The position numbers and the translations under genes were made by a program. Source: Candidatus Magasanikiibacteriota bacterium (GTDB taxonomy: Bacteria; Patescibacteriota; Patescibacteriia; Magasanikbacterales; UBA922). From it: a DNA stretch of 64,000 bases. The DNA is taken from positions 27,029 through 91,028 of the forward strand of contig JBAYVA010000003.1 of assembly GCA_041674805.1 (NCBI GenBank). The letters run 5' to 3'. A model generated the notes under the pieces. That model was not told the DNA's origin. It was given only the letters and a program-made list of their open reading frames with translations, and did no database searches. Positions 13,101 through 45,971 of the stretch are shown in pieces; the first letter of the stretch is position 1; the number at the start of each line of letters is the position of its first letter.

Positions 13101-13548
13101 ATTGATTCCAATTACTGCCGTATAGTGAGATAGCTACTTGTTCACTTAAAATATGACTAAGTTCGCCACCAGGAAGGATCGCGAAAACGCGAGCTGCTTC
13201 AGCACTTTTTACAAGCATACTACCTTCACGGAAAGTAAGCATTCTTGAAGCCAATGGGAATTGAGCTAAACAAGTTTCAGGAATTGTTACAACACCTGAG
13301 AAATCCTTGTACCAAGTATAAAATACTGATTCATTTGGGATAACTTGTCTTTTTAAATCACTACTTATTACGTATACAGATGCTTTACCAGCTACTTTTA
13401 CTAAGTCGCCAGCTTCAACTGTAGGACATTCACCTTCAGCATGAGCAACTACTGGTGCAAGTGCGGCTAAACCAACACTCCATACCATAGTCATTGCTAC
13501 TACTGAAAAGGTGAACAATTTTTTTCCGAATTTTAATACATCGTTCAT
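10141..13548 (-). CDS. Large secreted Thr/Ser/Val-rich repetitive surface protein (putative S-layer / adhesin-like)
   Basis: N-terminal signal peptide (MTMVWSVGLAALAPVVAHA-EGE). The 1135-aa protein is rich in T/S/V/A/D and reads like repeated beta-sandwich domains. No LPXTG motif is present. Confidence 0.65.
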   Translation of the reverse strand: MNDVLKFGKKLFTFSVVAMTMVWSVGLAALAPVVAHAEGECPTVEAGDLVKVAGKASVYVISSDLKRQVIPNESVFYTWYKDFSGVVTIPETCLAQFPLASRMLTFREGSMLVKSAEAARVFAILPGGELSHILSEQVAISLYGSNWNQSAVLRTLPDTELMSYIETSKQISTATLHEGMLVKKSGTTDVYSVMSGKLYKVSGTLSKVTAPAVRTVSAEVFASVEMSTASVTESAILMQTAPSTETPNQAGTLTLSLSANTPSSMNLPKDILGQTYVTMVAKAGDKAVDLTGLTVERAGLGRYDDFDKVYVVVDGITHGSKRVLGSDDEVEIYFSTDSNKITIPANSSVSISIVADMNGTLADSGNSSYLRIASVETTAKVNATFPISGNAMTVSGVSAPSITFDYSGNTSDLIVGETDKTVAEFSFDASTTEDVKLYSVLLKQKGTASTSDVVDYTLYYGDEVVAGPVQLGSNDYVKFVLSSPMLLEQDEINYDFTVKADVVSGNGETVKLVLDERTDVVAKGTKNGFLTVPTDVDASNEVTHTIKGGALSIDEHSDNPKAGTYAPKTKDIVMLVAELDASDETVVVTELPISITASAGTLHTTAGDLDLENLRVKLDGKTVCGPVDVTSATITCDEEFEVKGKQKLVVTADFAETVDSNDAFVFSIVSSGNAVKIEDLSGDALYSTGTTYDVSGSATGKAMTASSGTLSVSKNTSYANRTITTGASDYKLASFVIKAPTSQDVTIKKYTVTVGGAYGVANISDLHVSGDTDVIKDPAASNNFTVSTLLSKENTLTLDVYGSLDSSTTGAVTTTLAVEFKGSSDGITTTTSAVTGQTVTVAAGGLTDSLASANPDADIVLSEAKNVKVYSLQFEPSYDTFTLTDLDLTMSNSAAVTAVRIGNKEVTQFFSGVANFDGLTIDLSKKTTVDVYADFALVDSDLGIASGVTTTFEMTGYEASATQGDDVVDTSTSAGASNVFELRAARPVLAYTAGAEAAQKGFLSIGDNEMIKLTITADGGTVDFKGITLDLVQTGVTTTYVELLDSTRSSLATTTVSDATDAGGWDLSGLADSDREIGTTGVYYLSVKTSAVDASAQIAMKVTGITWDDDETTSSITGTYVDVLPSAKFLATENN

Positions 13549-13835
13549 AAATACCTTTTAAATTTATTGAAACGCGCCTCCGTATAGGTGTAAACACCAC
13601 GGTGTCGTGACAATAAATCTGAATAAATAGCCACTCAACTCTGCCTTACGACAGATCGACCTTGTGGTCAAGTGGGATCTCTCAAATAGTTTGCTTTTGG
13701 CAAAACTTACTTGAGATAGAGTCTCGTCGGCCAAGACGAGTGCCCTTTTTTCCCAAAATAGATTTCTCTATCTTGGTTACTGTATGGCCCACAATTCACC
13801 AATGATGAACTTTGGCTCATACAGTATAATACTTT

Positions 13836-13870
13836 GAATTTTGAAATTTAGTAATTTTAAATTTTAAATT
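13836..13870. repeat. Left arm of a ~34-bp inverted repeat flanking the four-helix-bundle gene
   Basis: gaattttgaaatttagtaattttaaattttaaatt; its reverse complement matches 14228-14263 with 1 mismatch. Confidence 0.7.
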
Positions 13871-14228
13871 AAATGTTATTTTTTGAACTATGATATATCT
13901 TATTAAAGATACGTACTAATTCACTTGTTTCTAACCATAAACTTCTTAAATCATTTTTGTTATTTATTTTTAATTCACCTAATAACTCTATCCAATATTT
14001 CGTTTCATTTATTTCTTTTCTCACTATAGCTATCTTATTTATAAAATCTTTTTTAGAACTAGCACTATTTGCTTCTCTATAATTCGCTCCAACACTTGTC
14101 GCTGATCTTATTAACTGTGATATAATAGCTCTATTCAAATTTGTTATTTCAATACCTTTTAGATAATTTAAGATTGATTTACTAAAATCAAATGTTCTCT
14201 TTTCTAAATTGTATTCCATACCCTCCAA
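13869..14228 (-). CDS. Four-helix-bundle protein (23S rRNA intervening-sequence protein family, TIGR02436-like)
   Basis: LIRSATSVGANYREANSASSKKDFINKIAIVRKEINETKYWIELL is the characteristic motif of this family. The gene sits exactly between near-perfect inverted repeats. Confidence 0.7.
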   Translation of the reverse strand: MEGMEYNLEKRTFDFSKSILNYLKGIEITNLNRAIISQLIRSATSVGANYREANSASSKKDFINKIAIVRKEINETKYWIELLGELKINNKNDLRSLWLETSELVRIFNKIYHSSKNNI

Positions 14229-14263
14229 AAATTTAAAATTTAAAATTACTAAATTTAAAATTT
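14228..14263. repeat. Right arm of the inverted repeat flanking the four-helix-bundle gene
   Basis: aaatttaaaatttaaaattactaaatttaaaattt. Confidence 0.7.
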
Positions 14264-15532
14264 TTCTACACTACTACTAGTAGTCGTAACAACACTTGAT
14301 GTGTTACTATTTACTACAGGTAATATAATAGGTATCACCGGTGTAGTAGTCAATATTTGTTCTTTCGTTGTTACTACTTCTTTACTCACAGTATCTACAG
14401 AAGTCTTTAGTTCAATAGTTTTTTTCACGGCTTCTAGAATATTTGTTTCTACCAAATTTGTTACTGTTGTTTTTTCACTTTCTACTGCTTTGGACATCTC
14501 AGCTACTTTGCTAGTCAATTCTGTAGTTTTTATTTGTGCATCTTGGACTGGTGTTGTTGTTTTCAATTCCACACTACTTGTTGTTGTATTTGTAGTAGTC
14601 ACACTGACATCTTCTTTTATAAGAGTACTTGTAGTATTCAAAGCTTGTGATTCACTTGTCGCTACATTATTGTTAGCACTAGCAGACAATCCTACCAAAT
14701 CTTCTTTCGCTTTTTCTGTATCTTTTTTTATTTCTTCTACAGCAGTAGCTAGATGATCTTTGATAATGATTTTTTCTTCTTCAGAAACAGCTGTCTTAGA
14801 TTCTACTTTCTTTTCCAAAACTCTTTCTACCATCTGCAAACTAGTTTGTGAGACATCTACTGCTTTGGCAGACAATTCTTTGGAAAGACTTGCATCTACG
14901 ACATTTTGTGAAGCTACTTCTTTTAGTGTACTAGATATTTCTTGAGTTTTTAGAGCTACATCTTTTACCAAATCTGATATTTTTATGACATCACTGTCTT
15001 TTAGTTCTTCTTTGGCAGTATCCAATTTTTGTTGCAATTCATCTGAAGCTTGTCTAATAATTTTAGTTTTTACATTTATATTTGCATCACTGTCAGCTAC
15101 TTCTTTTAGTACTTGAGCTCTCTTTGATGCAAACTCCAAATTCAAACTAGCTTTATTTTCTTTTGATGTAACTACCAGCTGACCTTGTTCTACGACATTA
15201 CTTATAGCTTTTTTGGTGGACCACATGATATCTCCAGGTTCAGCATAAGCACTTGCTATCCAACCACCAGAAGTGATGATAAGTGCTAATACCGTAGTGA
15301 AAACTGGTTTCAAAGTTCTTCCAATATTCTTTGGTAAAAGCATTTGATAAACATGAGCAATGTTTTTTAATTTTTCTGTCAAAATGTTTTCATTTTCATT
15401 GTGAATTGTTTCTACCGTAGTTTTGGCAATTTGACTCATCAACATTTTTTTATTTTCCAAAACCCAAGAAGGACGTGCTGTTAACACTTCCGTATTTTTC
15501 AAGTTCTTCAATTGTTCTTTCATTCTTTTCAT
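14255..15532 (-). CDS. Membrane-anchored coiled-coil protein downstream of the ECF sigma factor; possible anti-sigma factor (DUF5667-like)
   Basis: Cytoplasmic N-terminus, one TM helix (FTTVLALIITSGGWIASAYA), then a long coiled-coil and Thr-rich extracytoplasmic region. It lies directly downstream of the sigma gene in the same direction. Confidence 0.4.
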   Translation of the reverse strand: MKRMKEQLKNLKNTEVLTARPSWVLENKKMLMSQIAKTTVETIHNENENILTEKLKNIAHVYQMLLPKNIGRTLKPVFTTVLALIITSGGWIASAYAEPGDIMWSTKKAISNVVEQGQLVVTSKENKASLNLEFASKRAQVLKEVADSDANINVKTKIIRQASDELQQKLDTAKEELKDSDVIKISDLVKDVALKTQEISSTLKEVASQNVVDASLSKELSAKAVDVSQTSLQMVERVLEKKVESKTAVSEEEKIIIKDHLATAVEEIKKDTEKAKEDLVGLSASANNNVATSESQALNTTSTLIKEDVSVTTTNTTTSSVELKTTTPVQDAQIKTTELTSKVAEMSKAVESEKTTVTNLVETNILEAVKKTIELKTSVDTVSKEVVTTKEQILTTTPVIPIILPVVNSNTSSVVTTTSSSVEKF

Positions 15533-15585
15533 AAAAATAAATAGAATTTTGAATTTAGTCCCGACTAGTCGGGATAAAATTTTAT

Positions 15586-16173
15586 TTACCTCTCCAACAT
15601 CTTCTTCAATATTTTCAACGCTCTATACAAAGTAACTCTGACATTAGTAGTATTCTTTTGCAAAATATCTGATATTTCACTTGTACTCATTTCTTCTACA
15701 TATTTGAGTAAAATAATTTCTTGATATTCACGTTTCATTTTTTGCAAAGCTTTTGCCACTCTTTCTATTTCTTGTTTATCACCCAAATTTTTCAAAATCT
15801 TCGTCTCAGCAAAAATATCGCCAACTTCTTCTATAGATATTTCCAAATTGTGATTCTTACGATAATAATCTATCAAAGTGTTACGAGCTATTCTATAGAT
15901 AAGTCCACTAAAACTATTTATCACAGCTTCTCTATTGTCTATCAAATAGTTCCAAACTTTTAGAAAGACTTCACTTGTAATATCCTCAGCTTCTTCTCTA
16001 TTACCTAATTTCATATATACAAAACGATAAATTTTTTGTATATAAAGATCATAAAGAGTAGCGAAGCTGTCAGTATCTCCCATTTGTTGGATTTTGTGAA
16101 CAAGGAATTTTTCCTTATATTCAGCCTTCATATATAGAAGTCGTAAAAAATAAAAAAGTGTTACAGTTACCAA
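15586..16173 (-). CDS. RNA polymerase sigma factor, sigma-70 family (ECF-like, regions 2 and 4)
   Basis: Region 2 is DLYIQKIYRFVYMKLGNREEAEDITSEVFLKVWNYL; the region 4 HTH is ILLKYVEEMSTSEISDILQKNTTNVRVTLYRALKILKK. The real start is probably the internal MKAEYKEK. Confidence 0.8.
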   Translation of the reverse strand: MVTVTLFYFLRLLYMKAEYKEKFLVHKIQQMGDTDSFATLYDLYIQKIYRFVYMKLGNREEAEDITSEVFLKVWNYLIDNREAVINSFSGLIYRIARNTLIDYYRKNHNLEISIEEVGDIFAETKILKNLGDKQEIERVAKALQKMKREYQEIILLKYVEEMSTSEISDILQKNTTNVRVTLYRALKILKKMLER

Positions 16174-16299: not shown

Positions 16300-16570
16300 C
16301 AATAATCTGTGTACAAAATGTAGTCAAACATAACATAGTTATAAAATTATAATGTTATAAAGTTTGTAAAGTCTACAATATTTAAAATTGTAGATAAATT
16401 AGCCAAATTATCTAACATAATTATTTAAAACAAATATTATAAAAAACCTATTTTTTGGCTAAAATAACAATTAAAATGAACAAATTCGCACTTACAACAT
16501 TACAACGTTATAACATTATAACTTTATAACTTTACAAACTTTATAAACTCTTTGTATATAATAGTGTAAA
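16300..16570. repeat. Dense cluster of TTGTAAAGTT / TTATAAAGTT / TTATAATGTT units and small palindromes in a 445-bp divergent intergenic region
   Basis: Examples: gttataaaattataatgttataaagtttgtaaagtctacaatatttaaaattgtag and cattacaacgttataacattataactttataactttacaaactttataaactc. Confidence 0.6.
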
Positions 16571-25298: not shown

Positions 25299-25320
25299 AT
25301 AATGTGTTATCATATATAAA

Positions 25321-25450
25321 TAATTTAGAAATTTAGTAATTTTAAATTTTAAAACAATTTTGAATGCTCTAATTTTAAAAAGTAATTTAAAATTAATTCA
25401 TTTAAAAATTTAAAATTGTTTTAAAATTCGAAATTTAAAATTCCAAAATT
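25321..25450. repeat. Inverted-repeat element related to the arms flanking the four-helix-bundle gene at 13.8-14.3 kb, but with only a ~60-bp spacer (no cargo gene)
   Basis: Contains gaaatttagtaattttaaattttaaa (matches the left arm at 13836) and aaaatttaaaattgttttaaaattcgaaatttaaaatt, which resembles the right arm. Confidence 0.55.
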
Positions 25451-25467
25451 TCTCTAATAAACGTCTT

Positions 25468-27875: not shown

Positions 27876-29450
27876 ATGAAAATAAAGAAAATTCAACTTA
27901 AAGAATTTAAACGGTTTGATGACTTGACTATTGACTTAGGGGATAGCCCAAAGAAAATAGTAGCAATCGTTGGACCAAATGGTTGCGGAAAAAGCTCAGT
28001 TTTTGATGCATTAGAAGATAAACTAAGAGATTTTAGACATCTTGGAGATGAAGGTCATTCTTTTTACTCAAAAGCCCTATATTATCAAGATGAGGAAAAA
28101 CAAAAATCCATATATAACAAAGCAGAAGCAGTAAAAATTACACTTGAAGATGGGGTCATAAATCGAAAAAGTTTTTACATAAGGACTGCCTATAGATTTA
28201 CTTCGAAATTTAATGTAACTCATCTTGAAGCACAGCCTGAAATTCTCGCTCTTAGGGACGAGCCAATTAGTTCTATAGCAATTGATACAAGACTCGAATC
28301 AAATTACAAAAGGCTATTAGGTAAAGCATATACTGAATTCTTTGATGGAGCAAAAACAGGAGATGAGGTAAGAGAAGCATTAATTGGAAAAGTAAATCAA
28401 ATACTTAACCAAATTTTGGATATCGAAATTTCAGAATTAGGGAATATCCTTGAAAAGAAAGGCCAACTATATTTTAAGAAAGGGAATGTCGAAAATTTCC
28501 CTTATTCAAATTTATCTTCCGGTGAAAAAGAAGTCGTAGATATTATTTTGGATTTAATTATTAAAACTGAGGAATACAATGAAACAGTTTTCTGCATTGA
28601 TGAGCCTGAACTTCATTTAAATACTTCTATTCAAAGAAAGCTTCTACTAGAAATAGAAAAACTAATTCCAGATAATTGCCAGCTTTGGGTGGCAACTCAT
28701 AGTATTGGCTTTCTTCGTGGACTGCAAGAAGATTTAAAAGAAAAATCACAAGTCTTGGATTTTTCTGAAAAGGACTTTTTTACAGGTACCCACACCATAA
28801 CTCCAATAATTCCCTCGAGAAATAATTGGCAACGAATTTTTGGCACTGTTCTCGAAGATTTGACAGGACTAATCAGTCCAAGAAAGATTATCTATTGTGA
28901 GGGAAAAGATAGACCAGGTCAAAATGGAGAAGAAAAAGGTTTTGATGCTAAGGTCTTTAATTCAATTTTCACTGTAAAATATCATGATCTTGTGTTTGTA
29001 TCTAGCGGAGGAAATACAGAGCTTGACCAACGAAGCAATATTGCCATGACGATTTTAACAAAAGTTTTGAATGATATTGAAATATTGGTTCTAAAAGATA
29101 GAGATATATCGTCAGGTCGATTAAATACAGAAAAAGATAGACAAGTTTATTTATCAAATAACCCTAATAATTATCGTGTTTTGAAAAGATGGGAAATTGA
29201 AAATTACTTGTACGACAAAGAGGTTCTCAGTAAGTACTGTATTCAAAATGACTTGGAATTTAAAGAAGTAGATTATGACAATTTTGTTACGGACATAATA
29301 AATCAGAATGTTAAAGATAGCACAGGACTTATTAAGAACTTTTGCAGTATAATAACCAATGTAAACCCTGAAAACTTTAAATTTAATTTGGCTACATTGA
29401 TTACTGAAGACATGAATATTTATAAAGAATTAGAGAAATGTATAATGTAA
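27876..29450 (+). CDS. OLD-family ATP-dependent endonuclease (N-terminal ABC-type ATPase plus C-terminal TOPRIM), single-gene (class 1-like) arrangement
   Basis: Walker A GPNGCGKSS, ABC signature-like LSSGEKE, Walker B VFCIDEPELHLN and H-loop VATHS. The C-terminal domain has IIYCEGKDRPG (TOPRIM Glu) and LVLKDRDISSG (DxD). Confidence 0.65.
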   Translation: MKIKKIQLKEFKRFDDLTIDLGDSPKKIVAIVGPNGCGKSSVFDALEDKLRDFRHLGDEGHSFYSKALYYQDEEKQKSIYNKAEAVKITLEDGVINRKSFYIRTAYRFTSKFNVTHLEAQPEILALRDEPISSIAIDTRLESNYKRLLGKAYTEFFDGAKTGDEVREALIGKVNQILNQILDIEISELGNILEKKGQLYFKKGNVENFPYSNLSSGEKEVVDIILDLIIKTEEYNETVFCIDEPELHLNTSIQRKLLLEIEKLIPDNCQLWVATHSIGFLRGLQEDLKEKSQVLDFSEKDFFTGTHTITPIIPSRNNWQRIFGTVLEDLTGLISPRKIIYCEGKDRPGQNGEEKGFDAKVFNSIFTVKYHDLVFVSSGGNTELDQRSNIAMTILTKVLNDIEILVLKDRDISSGRLNTEKDRQVYLSNNPNNYRVLKRWEIENYLYDKEVLSKYCIQNDLEFKEVDYDNFVTDIINQNVKDSTGLIKNFCSIITNVNPENFKFNLATLITEDMNIYKELEKCIM

Positions 29451-36430: not shown

Positions 36431-36485
36431 ACTTTGTAGTTAAAAGTTTATAAAGTTTGTAAAGTTATAAAGTTACTTATTCTGC

Positions 36486-37453: not shown

Positions 37454-37570
37454 CAACAATAGTTTGTAAAGTTAAAAGTTTATAAAGTAAAAAGTTACTT
37501 TATAAAAAATACTTTATAACTTTATGAAATTTTCAGACCAAGACTTGGGCTGAATGAACTTTTAAATTCA

Positions 37571-43946: not shown

Positions 43947-45737
43947 TTATACCGTTTTTTTCACTTCAATGCTAAGTTCTTTCAATTGCTCTGGTGTAGC
44001 TTCTGATGGACTACCAACCATTGGTTCTTCTGCTCTTTGATTTTTTGGAAAAGGAACTACAGTACGAATATTTTTTTCTCCCAAAAGTAACATTGTCATA
44101 CGCTCAATTCCCGGCGCAAAACCACAGTGAGGTGGAACACCATAAGAAAAAGCTTGAATCATGTGACCAAATTTTTTGTCCACTACATCTGGACCGTAAC
44201 CAGCTATTTCAAAAGCTTTATACATAACATCAGGATAAGTATTGCGGACACCACCAGAAGAAAGCTCAAGACCATTGGCAATAATATCATATTGTTCAGC
44301 AACAATATCTAATGGGTCAGAATTTTGTAAAGCTTCCATACCACCTTGTGGTAAAGAAAAAGGATTGTGACCAAAATCAATTTTGCCAGTTTCTGGATTT
44401 TTTTCGTACATTGGGAAATCAACTATCCAAGCCCAAGCAATAATATTTGGATCAAGCAAATTCAATTTGTCAGCTACAAGAGTTCTCACAGCACCCAATG
44501 CTTTGGCAGAAGTTTCCCAATCATCGGCACCAAAAAATATTATACAATTTTCTTCTATTTTTAATAAAGATTTTAATTCTGCAAGTTGTGCTTCATCAAA
44601 AAACTTAGCAACTCCGCCATCAAAATTACCATCAACATACTTGGTCCAGGCTAAACCTTTGGCATGAGCACGCTTAGCTACATCAGTAAATTCTTCATCA
44701 ATTTCTTTACGAGAAAAAACTTCGCCTTTTGCTACGACCATAGCACGCACAAATTCAGCACTAGAAAAAACTTGAAAACTAGTTTTGTGAGCCCAGTCAC
44801 TAATATTTTTTATTTCCAAATCACAGCGTAAATCTGGTCTGTCTGAACCATATTTTTCAATCGCTTCACGAAATGGAATACGTGGAAAAGGTTTACTTAA
44901 AACTTTTTTGGTTGTTAAATTTTCTGTAAGTTCAATAAAAAGTGGCTCCATCAATTGGAAAAATTCTTCTTTTTCCATAAAACTGACTTCACAATCTAGT
45001 TGGTAAAATTCACCAGGACTTCTGTCTGCTCTTGGATCTTCATCACGCATACAAGGAGCGACTTGGTAATATCTGTCCATACCACCAACCATGAGCAATT
45101 GTTTATATTGTTGTGGTGCTTGTGGCAAAGCATAAAATTTACCAGGATGAATACGAGATGGCACCAAGAAATCACGTGCACCTTCTGGTGAACTCACTGT
45201 CAAAATTGGAGTAGCAATATCCAAAAAATCACGTGATTCCAAAAAATCACGCATATACTTCACCATTTTTGTTCTAAAAATTAAATTTTGTTTTAGTTTT
45301 TCACGACGTAATTCAAGAAAACGATATTTGAGACGAAGTTCTTCATCATCTTCACCTTTGTTGGTTTCAAAAATTTCAAAAGGCATTGGTTTAGCTTCAC
45401 TCAAAATTCTTATTTCAGTTGCTACCATTTCAATCTCACCTGTACTCAAATCTTTGTTAACATTCTTTTCATCACGAGCTTCAATACGACCCTTAACTGA
45501 AATCACATACTCATATTTCAATTTTTCAGCCAAAGAAAAATCTGCCATATTGTCTGGATTGAAAACAATCTGAGTAATACCATATCTATCACGCAAATCA
45601 ATAAAAACAAGACTACCCAAATCACGACGACGATGTACCCAGCCAGCCAAAATTACTTCTTCCCCCACATTTGTTTTTTTTAATTCCCCACAATTTTTTG
45701 TTCTGTATGACATACTTTTAAATGCTTGTCCGCCCAA
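43947..45737 (-). CDS. aspS: Aspartyl-tRNA synthetase
   Basis: N-terminal OB anticodon-binding domain and class II motifs (FRTKMVKYMRDFL; CMRDEDPRADRSPGEFYQLD; GGVPPHCGFAPGIERMTMLL). Confidence 0.9.
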   Translation of the reverse strand: MGGQAFKSMSYRTKNCGELKKTNVGEEVILAGWVHRRRDLGSLVFIDLRDRYGITQIVFNPDNMADFSLAEKLKYEYVISVKGRIEARDEKNVNKDLSTGEIEMVATEIRILSEAKPMPFEIFETNKGEDDEELRLKYRFLELRREKLKQNLIFRTKMVKYMRDFLESRDFLDIATPILTVSSPEGARDFLVPSRIHPGKFYALPQAPQQYKQLLMVGGMDRYYQVAPCMRDEDPRADRSPGEFYQLDCEVSFMEKEEFFQLMEPLFIELTENLTTKKVLSKPFPRIPFREAIEKYGSDRPDLRCDLEIKNISDWAHKTSFQVFSSAEFVRAMVVAKGEVFSRKEIDEEFTDVAKRAHAKGLAWTKYVDGNFDGGVAKFFDEAQLAELKSLLKIEENCIIFFGADDWETSAKALGAVRTLVADKLNLLDPNIIAWAWIVDFPMYEKNPETGKIDFGHNPFSLPQGGMEALQNSDPLDIVAEQYDIIANGLELSSGGVRNTYPDVMYKAFEIAGYGPDVVDKKFGHMIQAFSYGVPPHCGFAPGIERMTMLLLGEKNIRTVVPFPKNQRAEEPMVGSPSEATPEQLKELSIEVKKTV

Positions 45738-45971
45738 GGCGGATCCGCCTGGGGCGGAAAATGCCTAAAATGCTTAAAAAGCTTAAAGGCTTAAATTACT
45801 TAATTAGTTTAGCAAGATATTACATATAAATCAAGAGCTTTTAAGATAAAAACTATTTGCCAAAAAAACATACTTTAACTCAAATATTTTAAAACATTAA
45901 TTATAAAATAAAAAAATATTAGCTTAATTAAGCCAATATTTTTTATATTTATAACAAATTTTGATATAAAA

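Follow-up and report, generated by a model that had tools for sequence, protein, structure and literature searches.

The locus at positions 13837-14263 of the Candidatus Magasanikbacteria DNA analysed here (a stretch of 64,000 nucleotides, hereafter the window) is probably a promoterless selfish cassette, bounded by inverted repeats and of the kind known from rRNA intervening sequences (IVSs), which resides between protein-coding genes of an operon and has MITE-like derivatives. Comparison with related contigs indicates that this cassette has been inherited with its host operon over long periods, yet is lost in steps and can relocate together with its arms. Elements without the ORF, found on further metagenome contigs, have spread like MITEs to unrelated loci and in either orientation.

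A repeat search places the two arms of the cassette, both given for the minus strand, at 14230-14263 (upstream or 5' arm in gene orientation, AAATTTTAAATTTAGTAATTTTAAATTTTAAATT) and at 13837-13870 (downstream or 3' arm). Each arm is 34 nt long; they are 94% complementary, with two mismatches, and are spaced 359 nt apart. The 34-bp inverted repeat of the preliminary description is thus present, with coordinates that were off by 1-2 nt and with two mismatches instead of one. The minus-strand ORF between the arms (13869-14228) has 119 codons when counted from a TTG. Its conserved start codon, an ATG, is at 14219, and the gene therefore extends over 13869-14219 and encodes 116 amino acids followed by a stop. 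Its product is 100% identical to a database protein (P0001) annotated as 'four helix bundle protein' of Candidatus Magasanikbacteria. A Shine-Dalgarno-like GGAGGG, read from the sequence, is found at 14221-14226 of the minus strand, separated from the ATG by 1 nt and situated 3 nt inside the arm; orthologues have GGGGGA at this place. At the other end, the TAA stop (13869-13871) shares 2 nt with the inner end of the downstream arm. The preceding gene of the operon, in turn, ends within the outer portion of the upstream arm. The four-helix-bundle gene thus fills the loop exactly, and the proposal that the arms bracket a small four-helix-bundle gene with almost no spare sequence is borne out.

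In the MFE fold of the cassette transcript, the arms pair with each other (z -3.8), as expected for the long stem that had been anticipated, and the inverted repeat itself has a z of about 17 against shuffles. The arms are 97% A+T in a genome of 31% GC. The upstream arm contains a 26-nt sequence that is present three times in the window, versus 0.01 expected by chance. A PF05635 ORF within a terminal inverted repeat is the layout of ORF-containing 23S rRNA IVSs (PMC4990558), in agreement with the likeness to a gene in a long stem drawn at the outset. The cassette also lies outside any rRNA, as had been stated: Rfam and ARAGORN detected no rRNA gene in the window, and only two tRNAs. Its setting, in this CPR genome, is an anti-sigma-like gene on one side and the leader of a surface-protein gene on the other. 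Rfam returned no RNA family, ribozyme or intron, either for 13450-14350 at E <= 1 or for the whole window at the gathering threshold. A scan for sigma-70 promoters and terminators gave no convincing promoter on the coding strand inside the cassette, and neither an rnc gene nor an RNase III signature was found within the window.

The 116-aa protein matches PF05635 (23S_rRNA_IVP, E 3.7e-18) and TIGR02436 (E 1e-24). Its AlphaFold model is a four-helix bundle (pLDDT 92.8), for which the nearest solved structures, 2RLD (TM 0.82) and 2GSC (TM 0.80), are both pentameric; bAvd, an RNA-binding DGR protein, is a more distant fold match (TM 0.66-0.75). Alignment of 27 family sequences leaves 24 invariant columns, a conservation that indicates purifying selection on the PF05635 protein. 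The 116-aa protein matched nothing in PADLOC or PHROGs, and thus nothing points to a known role in defence or in phages. To our knowledge, no transposase, recombinase, nuclease or other catalytic motif is known in PF05635. A Pfam scan of the neighbouring genes likewise found no transposase, recombinase, nuclease or integrase adjoining the cassette.

The layout is family-wide rather than special to the locus of the window, and the unit is the gene together with its two arms. The 27-sequence alignment was used to scan one genome per species, and 80 loci were picked by protein similarity alone; they belong mostly to Patescibacteria, with some Planctomycetota, Verrucomicrobiota and Desulfobacterota. 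To score flanking repeats, the 150 nt upstream of each gene were locally aligned with the reverse complement of the 150 nt that follow it, and the best alignment score was taken, with a cut-off of >= 30. This score was reached by 76 of 87 PF05635 genes of other genomes (87%; median score 45, median z 9.9 against shuffles), versus 3 of 127 control ORFs (2.4%; median score 16) taken from the same loci, none of them within 250 nt of a PF05635 gene (Fisher p = 1e-41; Mann-Whitney p = 3e-32). The three high-scoring controls (a PaaX-like gene, PrgI and a Y1 transposase) have a self-palindromic hairpin on both sides, which is a different phenomenon. The inverted repeat is absent in about 13% of PF05635 homologues, L132 being an example. 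The family arms have a median length of 41 nt (range 15-75) and a median GC fraction of 0.15, even in GC-rich genomes; the median distance is 6 nt between the upstream arm and the start codon, and 10 nt between the stop and the downstream arm. When the 60 nt upstream of the gene are shifted against themselves, a shift of 7 is best in 52 of 75 cassettes, versus 14 of 127 controls, and the cassette arms can be described, from these sequence periodicities, as arrays of ~7-nt repeats. The arms of the window cassette have a mixed 7-8-nt period and not a clean 7. When the arm mismatches were sorted for wobble asymmetry, 80 were of the G:T type and 84 of the A:C type, so that the mismatch spectrum carries no signal of RNA-level selection and no excess of G:U-compatible types. 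Such equal numbers point to a symmetric DNA-level constraint, or to copying, rather than to selection for RNA pairing.

Non-palindromic inverted repeats were also seen around two PDDEXK_3 genes (GxxExxY-type PD-(D/E)XK), one DUF559 endonuclease-like gene and one divergent PF05635 gene (L089 923-1324 and 3920-4273, L019 4317-4709, L026 4117-4467), each with an arm sequence of its own. The gene-in-a-stem layout may therefore extend to other small multi-copy gene families.

The placement of the cassettes with respect to host genes is strongly biased. Both neighbouring genes could be identified for 80 cassettes. In 66 of these the cassette runs in the same direction as the two neighbours, another 14 occupy a convergent or divergent boundary, and no cassette is antisense to both genes. 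The distance to the next gene has a median of 56 nt on the upstream and 70 nt on the downstream side, little beyond the size of the arms. One cassette separates atpG from atpD (L037 1120-1590) and another directly follows parB (L124 2452-2923). PF05635 genes occur twice in a gap-speD-rpiB-rpe-tkt string (L132 2501-2854 and L133 4365-4730); there, the upstream arm has been lost and only heptamer repeats are left downstream. Because cassettes sit inside conserved operons, their arms cannot be strong terminators. As there is no room for a promoter and the gene is never antisense to both neighbours, transcription by read-through can be inferred, and the orientation bias of the ORF-bearing cassettes is best explained by selection for protein expression. 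Movement appears to be rare. The exact proteins P0019 and P0116 each have one genomic context (18 and 17 contigs, respectively), so that for these two proteins the occurrence of one exact protein in several contexts, which would be a sign of recent transposition, was not found. The near-identical contigs L001-L006 and L008-L013 show no micro-variation either, and compensatory changes are consequently not scorable among them. Most of the pattern could, as far as these sequences tell, reflect vertical descent plus decay.

The history of the cassette can be followed in its host operon. On the minus strand of the window, an ECF sigma factor gene (15586-16173) precedes a gene for a 425-aa anti-sigma-like protein (14255-15532, with its stop at 14255-14257), which lies upstream of the cassette; this operon (14255-16173) is the likely source of read-through transcription. 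On the other side, a conserved structured leader RNA (13549-13835, minus strand) occupies the host sequence between the cassette and the gene for a 1135-aa surface protein; it marks the 3' boundary of the insertion and is not part of the cassette. Eight related contigs share this order: a divergent HTH_17 gene, the ECF sigma factor, the ~425-aa gene, the leader and a ~1200-aa surface protein. In the window, the 3' end of the 425-aa gene, comprising three sense codons and the stop (14255-14266), overlaps the outer upstream arm. The protein ends with SSSVEKF before its stop, and orthologues stop two to three codons sooner (after SSTVR or STLR). The arm thus appears, from these reading frames, to have supplied a new C-terminus and stop codon to the anti-sigma-like gene.

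The junction after the 425-aa gene is found in four states. A cassette is present in the window, in L007 (arms of 38 nt, 95% complementary) and in L008-L013 (in L008, arms of 24 nt, 100% complementary). In L120 and L121 an ORF-less palindrome of 135-150 nt is found instead, both arms of which are homologous to the arms of L007; L001 has a 60-nt hairpin with a 20-bp perfect stem, and L123 a remnant of about 20 nt that resembles the outermost arm ends. The cassette of L001 sits one junction upstream, between the sigma factor and a 432-aa gene, and its arms are 81-87% identical to those of L007, which argues that the arms moved together with the gene. The four-helix-bundle proteins of these operons share 70, 71 and 77% identity and the sigma factors 78, 72 and 74%; the anti-sigma-like protein likewise co-diverges with the four-helix-bundle protein. 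Since the cassette protein tracks the sigma factor in this way, the cassette was probably present in the common ancestor of the operon; it was then probably lost stepwise in the clade of L120, L121 and L123 and relocated in the lineage of L001. The orthologous ORFs are near saturation at third codon positions (46-57% identity), yet each retains its own arms at 94-95% complementarity, which indicates that arm complementarity is actively maintained.

The leader RNA measures about 270 nt and is also present in relatives (L001 4790-5093, L007 3455-3747, also L120-L123). Extended blocks of it are invariant; in the RNAalifold prediction it has 76 pairs, compensatory double changes being seen in 28, in addition to hairpins of variable length. 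Rfam gave no match to it even at E <= 1, and the sequence at 13549-13835 is a candidate novel leader, riboregulator or ncRNA. In the divergent region between the HTH_17 and sigma factor genes, a second A/T-rich intergenic repeat family, made of TATAAC/TTATAA(A)CTTT units, forms an inverted pair (16312-16364 and 16504-16556). Another inverted pair of this family brackets a tRNA-Leu (36452-36473 and 37511-37532). An isolated, GC-rich overlapping palindrome (TTGTCCGCCCAAGGCGGATCCGCCTGGGGCGGAAAA, 45726-45761) in an A/T-rich intergenic stretch adjoins an A/T palindrome at 45893-45962.

An ORF-less, MITE-like copy of the element, about 139 nt long, lies on the plus strand at 25318-25456 between a folC-like gene and topA. 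Its arms (left ~25322-25365, right ~25408-25453) flank a conserved loop and are 89% complementary over 28 nt, extending to about 40 nt; it contains no ORF and forms its own hairpin (z -4.6). Positions 25328-25353 match the left arm of the cassette exactly (26/26 nt). The near-empty copy of the arms that the preliminary description had noticed at 25321-25450 is therefore genuine. The accompanying idea of an occupied and an unoccupied site holds insofar as cargo-bearing and cargo-less forms of one element exist, but 25318-25456 should not be read as an empty target: the element there is an ORF-less derivative copy at another locus, belonging to a dispersed MITE-like family of which it is the only copy in the window. 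Directly downstream of topA, a gene at 27876-29450 encodes a 524-aa AAA_21/AbiEii-type ATPase that also matches SMC_N and AAA_15, and that may, from these matches, be a defence-type ATPase.

When a 22-nt core of the arm was searched against metagenome contigs, 26 loci were retrieved, the source contig not being among them. The arm was found both with and without the cargo gene, as cassettes in relatives and as gene-less elements on other contigs. At least seven metagenome contigs carry the full palindromic element as at 25318-25456, loop sequence included, and no FolC or TopA homologue and no PF05635 gene was found near these copies. The flanks of the L015 cassette align with the ORF-less elements over about 70 nt on the left (60/69 with the window copy, 62/67 with L094) and about 40 nt on the right (33/40 with the window copy, up to 40/46). 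As the 5' and 3' flanks of a cassette thus align to the two sides of the gene-less element, the latter corresponds to a cassette without the ORF. The ORF-less form thus has a longer counterpart that shares its ends, namely the ORF-bearing cassette, whose ORF is no known transposase, and the alignments indicate that the gene-less element relates to the cassette as MITEs relate to their parent elements. An inner-arm motif, AAACAAT/ATTGTTT, is common to the gene-less family and to six cassettes at different loci, which are among the closest relatives, and occurs in 0 of 131 controls. The gene-less copies take either orientation; those of L094 and L118 run antisense to the genes on their two sides. 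Since ORF-bearing cassettes are never so placed, these copies must have arrived already gene-less. All ORF-less copies begin and end with AATT, their flanks are A/T-rich, and inspection revealed no consistent direct repeat; with ends and flanks of such composition, no target-site duplication can be defined for the element.

Several other explanations have to be weighed against a selfish cassette. It could be proposed that the gene is an ordinary, vertically inherited host gene, that its stem is an RNA-level device (for RNase III processing or stability) uncoupling its expression, that it has no mobility and that the hairpins are unrelated palindromes. The co-divergence of the protein with the sigma factor and the anti-sigma-like protein is what this would predict, and the strictly sense orientation, the purifying selection on the protein, the single context per protein and the pairing of the arms in the predicted fold also agree with it. 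Such a host gene is nevertheless quite improbable. The gene is absent from four orthologous operons, two of which have kept homologous arms, and in L001 cassette and arms are found together at a different junction. ORF-less elements that align with the cassette flanks, loop included, occur at unrelated loci and also in antisense. Neither do the near-equal mismatch counts show the excess of G:U-compatible types that RNA pairing would leave, and the same family is known to be inserted at scattered 16S and 23S rRNA sites in CPR bacteria (10.1101/2024.02.27.582315). A palindrome arisen by chance in A/T-rich intergenic DNA of low complexity, to which the composition of the arms in this 31% GC genome might point, is scarcely credible in view of the shuffle z of the repeat and the threefold occurrence of the 26-mer, and is refuted by the comparison of PF05635 genes with controls.

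A different kind of mobility can also be envisaged. MICs, for example MIC231 of Bacillus cereus, have the repeats of a resident IS, which supplies the transposase, and their cargo is variable. If the cassette were a MIC, or a MITE with a passenger, its arms would be the ends of a conventional IS, a transposase would act in trans and the four-helix-bundle protein would be mere cargo. Terminal repeats around a non-transposase ORF, together with short ORF-less copies, are indeed the layout of MICs and MITEs (PMC10969869), the arm mismatches show DNA-level symmetry and the ORF-less copies occur in both orientations. This explanation is unlikely, however, because a single passenger family is bracketed in 87% of cases and dominates across several phyla, with arms that differ even within one genome, which argues for a link between gene and arms and against a single IS family. 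The arms adjoin the ORF directly and leave no sequence to spare; no transposase or matching IS with such repeats was found in the window or in the ~120 loci fetched and examined, and the sole Y1 transposase (L031) is flanked by different, REP-type hairpins. Moreover, a neutral passenger would not explain why 0 of 80 cassettes are antisense to both neighbours. The protein might, finally, be an Avd accessory protein of a DGR, of which the repeats would be part. CPR genomes are rich in DGRs, and bAvd, which binds nucleic acid and takes part in a mobile-information system, shares with the cassette protein the four-helix-bundle fold, for which the crystal structures are pentamers; a divergent relative even has a weak match to PF22296 (bAvd). 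For the 116-aa protein itself, however, the bAvd model stays below significance, and no sequence similarity is detectable. The repeats, which are non-coding, are inverted and form no pair of template and variable direct repeats, and the neighbours within 10 kb are RecG, KhpA, LytR, Der, Pth, DprA, FolC and TopA. A DGR, which is very improbable on these grounds, is excluded by the Pfam scan, since no reverse transcriptase lies within 10 kb on either side.

The closest known counterparts of the selfish cassette are the rRNA IVSs of Leptospira, Coxiella and Brucella, which carry the S23p ORF. Both belong to the PF05635 family, have an ORF filling the loop of a terminal inverted repeat of ~28-40 bp, have short tandem heptamers before the start codon and are sporadically distributed. 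In the Coxiella 23S IVS, tandem heptamers directly precede the S23p start codon and the terminal stem has 28 bp (PMC4990558). Unlike rRNA IVSs, the cassette of the window is not inserted in a helix of 23S or 16S rRNA but between protein-coding genes of an mRNA operon, where it has a ribosome-binding site; operon cassettes hold an intact, conserved ORF in sense orientation and have dispersed, ORF-less miniature derivatives.

Other systems share some of these features. The form at 25318-25456 resembles Correia/NEMIS elements and bacterial MITEs in its size (~135 bp), its terminal inverted repeats, its dispersed intergenic location with presumed co-transcription with genes and the RNase III-type hairpin that it would make. 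It differs from them in that its apparent parent encodes a four-helix-bundle protein and no transposase, that the arms of the cassette are heptamer arrays and that no target-site duplication is recognisable in the A/T-rich ends. RAYT/REPIN systems likewise have a gene flanked by inverted repeats, dispersed gene-less inverted doublets and mostly vertical inheritance with rare movement. Their protein, however, is a Y1/HUH transposase (PF01797) and not PF05635, their REP hairpins are short and self-palindromic whereas cassette arms are long linear arrays, and there is one RAYT per REP family, whereas many cassettes, each with its own arms, occur per genome. An integron gene cassette can be rejected, as the arms stand on both sides of the ORF, 359 nt apart, instead of forming a single 3' attC, and no integrase is nearby.

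The following mechanism can be proposed. The cassette would be expressed by read-through from the host operon, and the ORF-bearing form would persist only where the protein is expressed. In the polycistronic transcript the arms would form a 34-bp A-U duplex, which might, like the stems of rRNA IVSs (PMC4990558) and of Correia elements (PMC10969869), be a substrate of RNase III; RNase III excision belongs to the rRNA system, and in the operon cassette the corresponding cleavage would free a monocistronic mRNA. At the DNA level, the arms may be symmetric, TIR-like recognition sites for a protein, as they are conserved across loci, are under symmetric constraint and consist of repeat arrays typical of protein-binding sites. 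The most plausible candidate for this protein would be the pentameric four-helix-bundle protein itself, since it is the only gene consistently linked to the arms, since its solved relatives are pentamers and since its distant relative bAvd binds nucleic acid. On these grounds, self-recognition of the arms would be the most likely mechanism. The cassette itself decays into MITE-like elements, and occasionally seeds them, through a series leading from deletion of the ORF to a palindrome of 135-150 nt, a short hairpin and a remnant. A stronger version, which we put forward tentatively and hold to be rather doubtful, is that the pentamer is the cassette's own recognition and mobility factor, binding the heptamer arrays (about five to six repeats per arm) and moving or maintaining the cassette and, in trans, its ORF-less derivatives. 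If this were true, rRNA IVSs and operon cassettes would form one widespread mobile class, served by a protein unlike known transposases, recombinases and homing endonucleases.

ORF-containing IVSs in rRNA are already known, and free-standing 'four helix bundle protein' genes are routinely annotated. In the full-text literature searched, we found no description of PF05635 genes bracketed by inverted repeats outside rRNA, of heptamer-array arms that nearly always enclose the free-standing genes, of their sense placement inside operons, of occupied, gene-less and decayed states at orthologous sites or of dispersed gene-less derivatives; an earlier mention in subscription journals is possible. The origin of rRNA IVSs, their mode of spread and the function of their conserved ORF have been debated since the early 1990s (hypotheses reviewed in PMC4990558). 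If the gene-in-a-stem is the normal state of free-standing PF05635 genes, the IVS question can be approached with comparative genomics and simple biochemistry, helped by the gene-less miniatures, the stepwise decay and the occasional relocations: occupied, empty and decayed sites then exist in nature in large numbers for studying how IVS-type elements move, and a candidate protein-nucleic acid pair, the pentamer and the heptamer array, is defined. The finding also bears on annotation, as the streamlined CPR genomes carry cassettes in essential operons (ATP synthase, parAB, pentose-phosphate genes), where the cassettes would put long double-stranded RNA segments into host transcripts.
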